Part shown: positions 52,971 through 54,533 of the stretch, piece by piece | How positions within the stretch are numbered: the stretch's first letter is position 1 | Layout of the letters: the number at the start of each line of letters is the position of its first letter | NCBI GenBank assembly: GCA_000165345.1 | Contig: CM000436.1 | Location: 256,001-320,000 of the forward strand | Length of the DNA stretch: 64,000 bases | Reading direction: 5' to 3' | Position numbers and translations under genes: made by a program | The notes under the pieces: generated by a model | Database searches by the model: none | What the model saw: only the letters and a program-made list of their open reading frames with translations | What the model was told of the DNA's origin: nothing

Positions 52971-54533
52971 ATGAAGAGTTTATTTAGTGCAATTATTTTC
53001 TTTTTGGTATTTGCAATTTCAGCTTTAAATGTAAATTCTCAAGAATTGATTTTAACAACTGAATCAGCAGTTTCAACAGATCAATCCACATTTGGGAATT
53101 CTTCTTATGTAAGCCCACCAATAAATTCAACAAAAGCATCAAGAAATGACACTTCTTCATCAGATTCAAGTGATACAGATGATGAAAAAAACCCACTTAA
53201 GAAGTTCCTAGAAAAGATCAAGAAAAAAAGAAATCTTGGGCTTACAAATGAGGAGATGGACAAGTTCAGCGAAAGAGAAGAGATCGATATTGCACAGAAA
53301 GAGTCATCCGAAGCATCAAAGGACTCTAATGCCACCACAACTACTGTTAAAGGAAAGAAGGGAGAATACAATAATGGTTACAACCATCATCATCATCATC
53401 ATCATCATAATCATCATCATCATGGATATAAGCCACATAAAACTACTACCACTACCACTACTACCACAACAACTACAACAACAACTACTACTACTACTAC
53501 CACTAGTACTACTACTACTACCACTACCACTACCACTACCACTACTACTACCACTACTACTACTACTACTACTACTACTACTACCACAACAACTACAACA
53601 ACAACTACAACTACAACTACTACAACTACTACAACAACAACAACAACAACTACTACTACTACTACTACTACAGAAGCTCCAGGTTCAAGAATCAATTCTT
53701 TAAGGCGTTTAAGAGGTCTTTCTGAAGATAATTCACAAGATGTTGAAGAAGTGAATCCCCAGGAAGAAGCAAGTAGATTAAGTAAATTAACAAATATGAC
53801 GAAAGAAATTAAGTCAAGTTTAGTAGATACATTCAACAATACAATGAGTATTGATATTTTAAATAACACAAAAAGCATTGTAAATCAAACATTAAACTCG
53901 ATTGAACAGATAAAAAATGTTACAACTTCAAATTTACCATTAAACTCAACCATTTTAGACCAAATCAAAGAAACTAGATCTGTTGCAGTTAACCAAACAA
54001 CAACAACTATTGAGAATAATTTAAACAATTTGACAAATGTTGATCTAGATTCAAAAGTTGCTATTTTAATGGCTCCAATCAATGAAACTTTATCTATTCT
54101 TCAAGAAACAACTAATTTAACAGGACTGACCAACTTAACAAATACATTGAAGGGAACAAATTTTACTGGTGTAGTTGAAGATTCTATTTTGAAGAACAAT
54201 TTAACACAACAATTTCCATTTAATGGATCTTTACTATTAAATGGTAAGGTAGCAAACATTACAACATTTGATATTCTTCCAGTTGGTCAGAACAATCTAG
54301 AAATTGATCTTAACAATACTAACTCTGGAAGTTGTCCAAATGGAGTTTGTGAAAGTGATCAAGAAGTTGATGATGAATTTACATTTGATTCTGATGGGCA
54401 CATTATCTACAAACAAGGTGCAGTTGAGAAAAATACTGATAAAGATGGATCAGCCTTTTCAGTTTCTTCATCAATCTATAACTTTGTATTCATATTCTCA
54501 ATAATCATTTCAACAATTTATTTACTACAATAA
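52971..54533 (+). CDS. secreted Thr-rich mucin-like glycoprotein with His tract and C-terminal hydrophobic (GPI-anchor-like) signal, ~520 aa
   Basis: Signal peptide MKSLFSAIIFFLVFAISALNVNSQ. An H9-N-H4 tract followed by about 75 consecutive Thr (one Ser). A central block rich in N-x-T/S sequons. C-terminus ...GSAFSVSSSIYNFVFIFSIIISTIYLLQ (omega site plus hydrophobic tail). The ORF track start at 52929 is GTG; the first ATG is at about 52971. Confidence 0.8.
   Translation: MKSLFSAIIFFLVFAISALNVNSQELILTTESAVSTDQSTFGNSSYVSPPINSTKASRNDTSSSDSSDTDDEKNPLKKFLEKIKKKRNLGLTNEEMDKFSEREEIDIAQKESSEASKDSNATTTTVKGKKGEYNNGYNHHHHHHHHNHHHHGYKPHKTTTTTTTTTTTTTTTTTTTTTSTTTTTTTTTTTTTTTTTTTTTTTTTTTTTTTTTTTTTTTTTTTTTTTTTTTTTTTEAPGSRINSLRRLRGLSEDNSQDVEEVNPQEEASRLSKLTNMTKEIKSSLVDTFNNTMSIDILNNTKSIVNQTLNSIEQIKNVTTSNLPLNSTILDQIKETRSVAVNQTTTTIENNLNNLTNVDLDSKVAILMAPINETLSILQETTNLTGLTNLTNTLKGTNFTGVVEDSILKNNLTQQFPFNGSLLLNGKVANITTFDILPVGQNNLEIDLNNTNSGSCPNGVCESDQEVDDEFTFDSDGHIIYKQGAVEKNTDKDGSAFSVSSSIYNFVFIFSIIISTIYLLQ
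53385..53423 (+). repeat. (CAT)n trinucleotide repeat encoding poly-His
   Basis: catcatcatcatcatcatcatcataatcatcatcatcat read directly. Confidence 0.85.
53442..53671 (+). repeat. (ACT/ACC/ACA)n ~230-bp trinucleotide repeat encoding poly-Thr; source of spurious poly-Val/poly-Leu ORFs on other frames
   Basis: Direct read. ORF-track entries 53420..53878(-) and 53236..53703(+) are out-of-frame readings of this repeat. Confidence 0.9.

Follow-up and report, generated by a model that had tools for sequence, protein, structure and literature searches.

Slippage-prone His and Thr repeats in cgd8_1160 (Muc21), a predicted GPI-type mucin-like protein of Cryptosporidium parvum with a female expression profile

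The stretch of DNA analysed here (64 kb, hereafter the window) contains a complete intronless open reading frame on the forward strand, which codes for 520 aa followed by a stop codon (ATG at 52971, TAA at 54531–54533). Since the published qRT-PCR primers for cgd8_1160 match the window exactly (53067–53088 on the + strand and 53236–53257 on the − strand; Mauzy 2012), the reading frame can be identified as C. parvum cgd8_1160 on chromosome 8. The gene models in four NCBI C. parvum assemblies match it with lengths of 519–522 aa, and the gene order is cgd8_1150 (cytidylyltransferase), cgd8_1160 and cgd8_1170 (permease). The gene is annotated as an "uncharacterized secreted protein" and is entered as the mucin "Muc21" in a comparative-genomics table (NetOGlyc-defined Muc list, Liu et al., 2016). 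cgd8_1160 is an already catalogued mucin gene, ordinary but with a somewhat unexpected expression stage. A full-text literature search found no paper that names it, and a marker may have been published under another name. The label "insulinase-like peptidase" beside cgd8_1160 in supplementary file 4 of Mauzy 2012 was rejected as a row shift, because gp900 bears a kinase label in the same table. The features of the gene and its product are collected in Table 1.

Table 1. Features of cgd8_1160, with positions in the window.
Feature	Position	Strand	Basis
cgd8_1160 ("Muc21") CDS	52971..54533	+	ORF, NCBI models, primer matches
Predicted signal peptide, aa 1–23, cleavage VNS/QE	52971..53039	+	Rule-based
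N-terminal domain, aa 24–138	53040..53384	+	Motifs found by regex or by eye
[FY]VxPP motif	53106–53120	+	Regex, in 12/12 species
Acidic Ser/Asp patch SSSDSSDTDDE	53154–53186	+	Acidic Ser/Asp run by regex, 12/12 species
Basic patch KKFLEKIKKKR	53199–53231	+	Kept in intestinal species only (by eye)
His cluster H8-N-H4, (CAT)8 AAT (CAT)4, length-variable	53385..53423	+	Tandem Repeats Finder
Mucin tract T21-S-T55, aa 158–234, ACT/ACA/ACC codons, length-variable	53442..53672	+	Tandem Repeats Finder
Basic motif RRLRGLSED, aa 245–253, candidate processing site	53703..53729	+	Directly after mucin tract; alignment
Conserved C-terminal domain, aa 254–491	53730..54443	+	Alignment, sequon counts
CPNGVC (CPNG[VI]C genus-wide)	54333–54350	+	Invariant C-P-N-G-x-C columns
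GPI-attachment-type signal: triad G493-S-A, spacer FSVSSS, tail IYNFVFIFSIIISTIYLLQ	54447..54530	+	Rule-based omega-site scan

The predicted signal peptide has a hydrophobic h-region (Kyte-Doolittle 3.0 over 12 aa), and a (−3,−1) cleavage site at position 22–24 is kept in 12 of 12 orthologues. The N-terminal domain that follows contains four N-glycosylation sequons. A match to the Pfam family New_glue, spanning the signal peptide and the N-terminus rich in Ser and Asp, scored 25.7 bits where 31 is required, and was rejected as compositional.

Both repeats were recovered by Tandem Repeats Finder, the His cluster as (CAT)13 at 53385–53423 (score 71) and the mucin tract as an ACT-like repeat of 76.7 units at 53442–53671 (score 250), which is by far the strongest repeat in the window. 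An earlier note on this DNA, made from its letters, had described these as a (CAT)n repeat and a ≈230-bp ACT/ACC/ACA repeat, as we also find. It had read the His cluster as H9-N-H4, where the sequence has H8-N-H4. Its length for the poly-Thr stretch (≈75 residues) was about right at 77 residues; the stretch is not uninterrupted, since it is broken once by Ser179 (AGT, 53505–53507). The codons are 46 ACT, 20 ACA, 10 ACC and 1 AGT, so that the DNA repeat is 84% regular, yet 76 of the 77 residues encoded are Thr. The tract thus represents a dense Ser/Thr cluster of the kind found in Cryptosporidium mucin-type O-glycoproteins. Other species replace it only with Thr/Ser-rich sequence and this, together with the mixed codons, indicates selection on the amino acids. 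The O-GalNAc transferases of C. parvum nearly saturate Thr arrays, as seen in Gp20 (PMC5549699), and by analogy the tract is predicted to form a dense O-GalNAc stalk.

All protein length differences among ten assemblies fall within the His and Thr repeats and nowhere else. The Thr tract has 76, 77, 77 and 79 residues in four C. parvum assemblies (the window has 77 and is identical to two of them), 72, 75 and 72 residues in C. hominis, and 79 and 69 residues in C. meleagridis, and its length changes are located in the pure (ACT)n and (ACA)n runs. The length of the His cluster is 13 in C. parvum, 9 or 12 in C. hominis and 15 in C. meleagridis. Both repeats change length by codon slippage, and the remainder of the protein is strongly conserved, with 94–100% conservation among these three species outside the repeats. 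The earlier note had expected slippage and length polymorphism at both trinucleotide tracts, and this is what the ten assemblies show. The steps are small: the C. parvum assemblies differ by 1–3 codons, those of C. hominis by as many as 6, and the two of C. meleagridis by 10. Part of the variation in repeat length between assemblies could be assembly noise. As a typing marker the gene offers only 3-bp steps over ≈300 bp and needs sequencing or capillary sizing, and the repeat adds little to the typing markers already in use.

The basic motif after the mucin tract reads R-[RS]-L-R-G-[LA]-S-[ED] in the nine intestinal species examined and LRKLSQ in the three gastric species, with L, R and S invariant in the alignment. 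The intestinal form (R-[RS]-L-R/G) fits a minimal RxxR site and not an RSRR-like one; in the gastric species the sequence is QNLRK. Drawing on gp40/15 and its furin-like site, we infer that the precursor may be cleaved at this motif. A PEXEL-type export signal was also considered and was rejected on the position of the motif: the RRLRG and RGLSE stretch begins at residue 245, after the mucin tract, and C. canis has RGASD instead.

In the C-terminal domain 16 N-x-S/T sequons (15 of them N-x-T) are found between 53793 and 54320, as compared to 7.1 ± 2.2 in 5000 shuffles. Each of these sequons lies at the same alignment column in 6–10 of ten species. The alignment of the domain has 33 invariant columns, C-P-N-G-x-C among them, and the domain further carries an acidic ESDQEVDDE and a ..YKQ motif. 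Between C. parvum, C. hominis and C. meleagridis it is 94–98% conserved. The whole protein has two Cys residues, both in CPNGVC, and does not contain the Cys-rich type I or type II repeats of the COWP family.

The hydrophobic tail of the GPI-type signal consists of 19 uncharged residues and ends at the stop codon, leaving no cytoplasmic tail. An omega-site scan by simple GPI-signal rules was positive for all 12 orthologues, and their last 20–30 aa are devoid of charged residues, except for the terminal Arg of C. ryanae. The signal peptide and the GPI-type C-terminus, the latter described in the earlier note, thus agree with simple rules in 12 of 12 orthologues. These rule-based signals, together with the listing as Muc21 in the literature, bear out the secreted, mucin-like GPI-type architecture that it had put forward.

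Syntenic orthologues are present in 12 of the 12 Cryptosporidium species examined (nine intestinal and three gastric) and were recovered via the conserved neighbouring permease, not via protein homology search. The literature gives cgd8_1160 as "absent" from C. andersoni, which reflects an orthologue missed in orthology calling. The genus-wide core consists of the C-terminal domain (14–19 sequons per species and CPNG[VI]C) and the GPI signal. Only the intestinal species have the His-plus-Thr module, in place of which the gastric species carry poly-Ser. The earlier note had proposed that the His tract may bind metal or sense pH. A His cluster is found at the same position in all nine intestinal species and in none of the three gastric ones, and its codon patterns differ among the nine. 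In seven of them (the C. parvum to C. felis group) it is followed by a linker G-[YHL]-K-P-[HQY]-K, which differs in C. bovis and C. ryanae.

In this analysis cgd8_1160 was recovered from Cryptosporidium alone. The full protein drew two matches only, both weak and without annotation (E 3.5e-8 and 2.4e-4), for which the low-complexity tracts are presumably responsible, and the C-terminal half had no match in a 5.8-billion-cluster index or in a phmmer scan of 1.84 billion representatives; because the exact protein is absent from the searched collection, these negatives say nothing on homologues outside the genus. No Pfam family reaches its gathering score for cgd8_1160, and a profile search of the PDB with the 10-species alignment gave no match. 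A single-sequence AlphaFold2 model of the C-terminal domain, with ≈155 residues helical, is untrustworthy (pLDDT 42.7, pTM 0.26).

The published expression data place the gene late in culture. By qRT-PCR, cgd8_1160 has values of 5e-10 to 8e-7 across 6–24 h, ≈1e-6 at 36 h and 3e-5 to 1.1e-4 at 48 h (Mauzy 2012), so that ≈94% of its signal falls at 48 h, in the sexual-stage window. Cultures turn sexual abruptly at this time, and the transcripts of COWP1 and HAP2 rise as well. From 48 to 72 h the cgd8_1160 transcript drops ≈26-fold; COWP1 is comparatively high at 72 h (≈4-fold lower in the one comparable replicate pair). RNA-seq of sorted cells gave log2 values of 3.51 in asexual stages and of 10.57 and 9.02 in COWP1-positive females in vitro and in vivo, respectively (Tandel 2019). 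The gene is listed in the tables of genes up-regulated in females with a LogFC of 7.06 relative to asexual stages, which corresponds to an ≈130-fold enrichment. Males were not sequenced by Tandel et al., so both sexes may express the gene. The 26-fold fall by 72 h and the lower level in females in vivo suit a female gene expressed early, ahead of fertilisation, more than one for late wall building. According to the summary of a single-cell atlas given in a review, females express "mucins and C-type lectin" and glycosyltransferases in a wall-building wave. We did not find cgd8_1160 in the supplements of an oocyst proteome or of a sporozoite-vesicle proteome, which is weak evidence as identifiers and files may be incomplete.

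Among known proteins, gp40/15 (gp60, cgd6_1080) resembles cgd8_1160 in having a signal peptide, a homopolymeric tract encoded by slippage-prone trinucleotides, a downstream basic R-x-x-R-type motif and a GPI signal. In both, isolates differ in repeat length, and the likeness is one of architecture. By contrast, gp60 is expressed in merogony, from 12 h on (1e-3 to 7e-3), when cgd8_1160 is still nearly silent (until 48 h), and carries poly-Ser in place of a poly-Thr tract with a His cluster. It is also hyperpolymorphic throughout, whereas in cgd8_1160 the repeats alone vary, and its cleavage is proven, while that of cgd8_1160 is hypothesised. GP900 (cgd7_4020) likewise has very long Thr runs (33–155) with O-GalNAc and is N-glycosylated, yet it differs from cgd8_1160, a GPI-type protein of 520 aa with female expression, in being a micronemal type I transmembrane protein of very large size that is expressed at 12 h.

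Muc1–25 (e.g., Muc20, cgd8_700) are, like Muc21, Ser/Thr-rich secreted proteins of one NetOGlyc-defined list, and the catalogued members share no sequence similarity. The repeats of some already serve for subtyping, such as Muc25/MVP1 (cgd6_40), which is marker MSC6-7. Unlike cgd8_1160, Muc25 is Ser-rich; every stage stores it in small granules, and it is exported to the microvilli of the host. The large conserved N-glycosylated domain and genus-wide orthologues of cgd8_1160 also set it apart from the many other mucins that are absent from gastric species. Outside the genus, Eimeria GAM22 offers a functional analogy only. It is a secreted His-rich macrogamete protein of wall-forming bodies and oocyst wall, but has 186 aa (22% His, 16% Pro) and neither a mucin tract nor a GPI signal. 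Toxoplasma CST1, as described in two reports (PMC3873430, PMC5225312), is a stage-specific SRS glycoprotein in which a Thr-rich O-GalNAc mucin domain gives the cyst wall rigidity. It differs from cgd8_1160 in its SRS domains and in belonging to the bradyzoite cyst, not to the gamete or oocyst.

We infer from the architecture and the expression data that the product of cgd8_1160 belongs to the glycocalyx of the macrogamete or zygote and has a role either where the membrane meets the oocyst wall or in gamete recognition. A GPI anchor would hold the protein in the plasma membrane of that cell, with the N-glycosylated C-terminal domain adjoining the membrane. If saturated with O-GalNAc, the Thr tract could form a stiff rod of roughly 15–20 nm, at the far end of which the His cluster and the charged N-terminal domain would stand clear of the membrane. 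Such an anchored rod would therefore take part in the female or zygote glycocalyx and in contact of the membrane with the inner, glycoprotein layer of the oocyst wall as it forms. Cleavage at the conserved R-x-L-R/G motif may in addition free the mucin half from the anchored half, as in gp40/15. There are precedents in the mucin-like glycoproteins that have been proposed as tethers of sporozoites to the inner oocyst wall, and in the His-rich GAM22 of the macrogamete wall-forming bodies of Eimeria. Taken as a whole, a GPI-anchored secretory glycoprotein of the female gamete with a role in the glycocalyx and in oocyst-wall contact, possibly cleaved at R-x-L-R/G, is our best explanation, and we regard it as having an even chance of being correct. 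A GPI anchor counts for retention at the membrane and against incorporation into the wall matrix.

A more specific version is improbable and is offered as speculation. The His cluster and the O-glycosylated Thr rod would be an innovation of the intestinal clade, lacking in the gastric species with their acid habitat, and would act as a pH- or metal-switchable surface link on the female gamete or zygote, either as a docking ligand for male gametes or as a tether between membrane and inner oocyst wall that is freed by protonation of His in the stomach. The precursor would be split at R-x-L-R/G into a mucin half and a GPI-anchored half with the N-glycans, much as in gp40/15. We found no characterised female-gamete surface protein of Cryptosporidium in the papers examined for this analysis. 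As a female-enriched GPI-type glycoprotein that all the species examined possess, cgd8_1160 would be a sensible target for tagging or knockout, possibly with a view to transmission blocking, and it bears on the attachment of the oocyst wall to the parasite and on male recognition of female gametes.

The coat could instead serve gamete recognition alone and have no part in the wall: exposed on the macrogamete before fertilisation, it would dock the male gamete or act as a species barrier to it. The 48 h peak is sharp and transient, the fall by 72 h is steeper than the COWP1 and HAP2 values suggest (only some replicates are readable), and unfertilised females in vitro express the gene more strongly than females in vivo. 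At 48 h the attachment of males to females is polar, a review reports the hypothesis that early female genes mediate male attachment, and a GPI anchor with distal, fast length-evolving repeats would be typical of surface recognition molecules. The 94–98% conservation of the C-terminal domain across three species is, however, unlike that of fast-diverging recognition proteins, and we consider this reading unlikely. The earlier note had suggested a zoite-surface mucin for attachment; as a surface or micronemal mucin of sporozoites and merozoites the protein would resemble gp900, gp40/15 and CpMuc4/5. It shares its general architecture with gp40/15, a protein made by the female could pass to the sporozoites formed inside the oocyst, and a second table of Tandel 2019 may give a sporozoite log2 value of ≈7.7, the row assignment being ambiguous due to a shifted description column. 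The expression data speak against such a role. No transcript peak was seen in merogony, where cgd8_1160 reaches 5e-10 to 8e-7 (6–24 h) and gp60 and gp900 peak at 12 h with 1e-3 to 9e-3, and the sorted cells gave a log2 of 3.5 in asexual stages vs. 10.6 in females; the gene was also not found in the sporozoite-vesicle and oocyst proteome supplements. The merozoite part of this reading is largely contradicted, the reading as a whole is very unlikely, and cgd8_1160 should not be counted among the zoite invasion ligands.

Cleavage at R-x-L-R-G-L-S-E, of either RxxR or RxLxE type, might also release the His-plus-mucin fragment to the parasitophorous vacuole or host interface as a shed effector or lubricant. 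All nine intestinal species have the motif, and its L, R and S do not vary across the genus. In gp60 a furin-like site is cut, the exported mucin Muc25 reaches host microvilli, and GP900 is reported to be shed. Functional PEXEL/TEXEL motifs are found within some tens of residues of the signal peptide, far closer than the ≈220 residues seen here. RGASD in C. canis breaks RxL, and RxxR is lost in the gastric species, where the upstream Arg is missing; this reading is quite unlikely. It is compatible with the glycocalyx explanation and not exclusive of it. Finally, the His and Thr tracts might be neutral products of slippage that are tolerated in the linker of an ordinary secreted protein. Homopolymer tracts are common in AT-rich apicomplexan genomes, the lengths drift between isolates, and the tracts are missing from the gastric orthologues, which retain all other motifs. 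We find this highly improbable, since an imperfect three-codon repeat still encodes an almost pure Thr tract that is substituted elsewhere only by Thr/Ser-rich sequence, and the position of the His cluster is kept in nine species despite differing codons, with a conserved linker in seven.

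A single unbroken open reading frame of 520 codons was confirmed where the earlier note had placed its mucin gene. Both cgd8_1160 primers of Mauzy et al. (2012) have exact and unique matches inside it, and the gene is therefore cgd8_1160. The upstream neighbor is the choline-phosphate cytidylyltransferase cgd8_1150, and the downstream permease is identical to C. parvum EAK89336.1, on a chromosome of ∼1.34 Mb. At cgd8_1160 the window is identical to CP029787.1 and CP141125.1. Neither the gene, which has been catalogued before, nor its kind is new. It is Muc21 (cgd8_1160, Chro.80136, cubi03340, "absent" in C. 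andersoni) in the NetOGlyc-defined mucin table of Liu et al. (2016), and operationally it is one of the Cryptosporidium mucin-type glycoproteins. It is likewise a member of the published set of female-up-regulated genes and is labeled "Uncharacterized Secreted Protein" in Tandel et al. (2019). A full-text literature search found no main-text mention of it.

Coordinates of cgd8_1160, its parts and its surroundings (window positions, or positions within the fetched loci of C. muris, L017; C. andersoni, L018; C. serpentis, L019; and C. parvum assemblies, L001-L004)
Feature	Position	Strand	Remarks
cgd8_1160	52971-54533	+	
Hydrophobic N-terminus	aa 1-23	+	from sequence
N-terminal domain		+	115 residues; YVSPP motif, acidic SSSDSSDTDDE patch, basic KKFLEKIKKKR patch
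His cluster H8-N-H4	53385-53423	+	(CAT)8 AAT (CAT)4; Tandem Repeats Finder score 71
GYKPHK linker		+	between His cluster and Thr tract
Thr tract T21-S-T55	53442-53672	+	77 residues; Tandem Repeats Finder score 250
RRLRGLSED motif	53703-53729	+	directly after mucin tract
Asn/Thr/Leu-rich C-domain		+	238 residues; after RRLRGLSED
C-terminal end		+	GSA-FSVSSS-IYNFVFIFSIIISTIYLLQ, then stop codon; GPI-type by rule-based prediction
Primer match	53067-53088	+	
Primer match	53236-53257	-	
Permease	55244-56632	-	
cgd8_1150 region	∼49900-52199; L001-L004 14428-16614		
AT-rich spacer	52200-52970		770 bp
Gastric orthologue, C. muris	L017 10067-11578		∼500 aa, syntenic
Gastric orthologue, C. andersoni	L018 7828-9336		∼500 aa, syntenic
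Gastric orthologue, C. serpentis	L019 7848-9344		∼500 aa, syntenic
Mito_carr gene, C. muris	L017 11758-13208		∼400 aa
Mito_carr gene, C. andersoni	L018 9512-10981		∼400 aa
Mito_carr gene, C. serpentis	L019 9533-11006		∼400 aa
Minisatellite	11936-12029		18-bp unit TGGAAGCAGAGAGAGAGG, ∼5 copies
(AAT)21	45872-45934		
(TA)45	60495-60581		

The mucin-like tract and the predicted GPI-type C-terminus bear out the earlier structural reading. The His cluster and Thr tract are both present, with H8 and not H9 in the former, and the latter, described as uninterrupted, is broken once by Ser179. Tandem Repeats Finder ranks the Thr tract as the top repeat of the entire 64-kb window. The tract is encoded by 46 ACT, 20 ACA, and 10 ACC codons. 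As its regularity is only 84% at the DNA level while 76 of 77 residues are Thr, the sequence points to selection acting on the amino acid and not to DNA slippage alone. In C. parvum, 16 sequons lie in the C-domain, against 7.1 ± 2.2 after shuffling; 15 of them are N-x-T, in agreement with the reported bias of C. parvum N-glycosylation.

The motif after the mucin tract is kept as R-[RS]-L-R-G-[LA]-S-[ED] in all nine intestinal species and has LRKLSQ as its gastric counterpart. It is compatible with a minimal RxxR protease site and equally with RxLxE. By its resemblance to the furin-like site at which gp40/15 is cut into gp40 and GPI-anchored gp15, the conserved R-[RS]-L-R-G is a possible cleavage site. 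A PEXEL-type protein was rejected, as the motif lies 220 residues from the signal peptide.

Orthologous loci were retrieved via the neighboring permease from nine assemblies, and ten were compared in total. The protein has 519, 520, 520, and 522 aa in four C. parvum assemblies (76, 77, 77, and 79 Thr; 13 His in all), 511, 517, and 514 aa in three of C. hominis (72, 75, and 72 Thr; 9, 12, and 12 His), and 523 and 513 aa in two of C. meleagridis (79 and 69 Thr; 15 His in both). The His and Thr tracts hold all length differences, apart from a single 1-residue gap between C. meleagridis and the other two species. Within species, the length differences fall at codon level in pure (ACT)n or (ACA)n runs or in tct units, the pattern expected of slippage. 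The locus is thus length-polymorphic as had been proposed, in small steps, part of which could come from misassembly of homo-codon runs. Outside the repeats, no more than one codon separates the C. parvum isolates; of the 425 codons compared between C. parvum and C. hominis, 15 show synonymous and 10 non-synonymous differences.

A gene between permease and cytidylyltransferase was present in every species examined, which further included the chipmunk genotype, C. ubiquitum, C. canis, C. felis, C. bovis, and C. ryanae as well as the gastric C. muris, C. andersoni, and C. serpentis. All 12 orthologues have a predicted signal peptide, [FY]VxPP, an acidic run of Ser/Asp, and the core L-R-x-x-S of the RxLRGLSE motif. 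They also share the N-x-T-rich domain, CPNG[VI]C with an acidic stretch behind it, ..[YF]KQ, and a GPI-type tail. The C-domain has 14–19 sequons per species, and every C. parvum sequon is kept at its alignment column in 6–10 of 10 species. The His cluster (5–15 His per 15-residue window) and Thr/Ser runs of 14–105 are found only in the nine intestinal species, and neither His cluster nor poly-Thr was seen in the three gastric orthologues. These have a poly-Ser of 23–30 residues at the acidic patch instead, together with FVLPP, CPNGIC, DENGKPIIKFKQ, many sequons, and the GPI-type tail. As the core is common to all but the His-Thr part is not, the "mucin" part is a lineage-specific addition to an older core that is N-glycosylated and GPI-type. 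The "absent" entry for C. andersoni (Liu et al., 2016) is an orthology-calling miss. In the gastric species a mitochondrial-carrier (Mito_carr) gene separates the orthologue from the cytidylyltransferase. In each of the nine intestinal species this gene is missing and a short AT-rich spacer is all that lies there, which is a local trace of mitosome reduction.

Expression does not fit the zoite attachment mucin that the earlier note had suggested. In the 72 h qRT-PCR time course (Mauzy et al., 2012; PMC3305300) the signal is 1e-7 to 7e-7 at 2 h, 5e-10 to 8e-7 at 6–24 h, ∼1e-6 at 36 h, 3e-5 to 1.1e-4 at 48 h (94% of expression in the authors' table), and 1e-6 to 5e-6 at 72 h. In the same data set gp60 and gp900, both zoite mucins, reach their maximum at 12 h (1e-3 to 9e-3). 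Both COWP1, a female marker, and HAP2, a male marker, jump at 48 h (PMC3305300), when HCT-8 cultures abruptly turn sexual (Tandel et al., 2019). Sorted-cell RNA-seq, a set without males as its authors caution, gave log2 CPM values of 3.51 in asexual stages, 10.57 in COWP1-reporter females in vitro, and 9.02 in females from mice (female vs. asexual LogFC +7.06; Tandel et al., 2019). The 48 h peak and the enrichment in sorted females therefore make cgd8_1160 a sexual-stage, female-enriched gene, and a merozoite or sporozoite invasion mucin was rejected. According to a recent review's summary of the single-cell atlas, females turn on COWPs first, then glycosyltransferases, "mucins and C-type lectin." Descriptions are shifted against gene IDs in supplementary file 4 of PMC3305300, where gp900 (cgd7_4020) carries the label of a CAMK kinase and cgd8_1160 that of an insulinase-like peptidase; one table of supplementary file 5 of Tandel et al. 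(2019) is displaced in a similar way and makes cgd8_1160 a triose-phosphate transporter.

No Pfam family reached the cut-off for cgd8_1160, and no relative was found in the PDB. The exact protein is absent from a 15-billion-protein collection, though annotated in NCBI assemblies, and two large protein searches with the non-repetitive C-terminal half returned no match, failing to recover even the protein itself or its orthologues. These negatives are therefore uninformative on relatives outside the genus; proteins with very low-complexity tracts may have been dropped from these resources. A COWP was rejected, as cgd8_1160 has only two Cys. Eimeria GAM22, which is His-rich and located in macrogamete wall-forming bodies, offers a functional precedent by analogy only.

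Consecutive Thr residues in Gp20 are nearly saturated by C. parvum O-GalNAc transferases, and the authors infer that this makes such tracts stiff and elongated and that sporozoites may be held to the inner oocyst wall by mucin-like glycoproteins (PMC5549699). Going beyond the architecture, conservation, repeat dynamics, and female-enriched transcription observed directly for cgd8_1160, the mature protein would be held by a GPI anchor in the plasma membrane of the macrogamete or zygote, with its N-glycosylated domain next to the membrane. The glycosylated Thr rod (77 residues at textbook values of ∼0.2–0.25 nm each, or ∼15–20 nm) would push the His cluster and charged N-domain outward. There the protein would contribute to the coat of the female or zygote and to the contact made with the inner layer of the nascent wall. 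Alternatively, the protein could be a macrogamete-surface ligand docking the male gamete. This gamete-recognition role keeps appreciable weight, because the 26-fold fall of the transcript at 72 h and its lower level in females in vivo than in vitro fit an early-female, pre-fertilization role. Since it encodes a conserved GPI-type glycoprotein of the female gamete whose His-Thr module is specific to the intestinal clade, cgd8_1160 is a sensible but unsurprising candidate for work on oocyst formation or fertilization.

Gene models of the cgd8_1150 region vary between C. parvum assemblies, giving either a 386-aa cytidylyltransferase or a 346-aa enzyme and a separate Pcc1-like gene of 83 (or 49) aa. 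For the CRAL_TRIO gene next to it, the annotations give either 289 + 127 aa or 408 aa.
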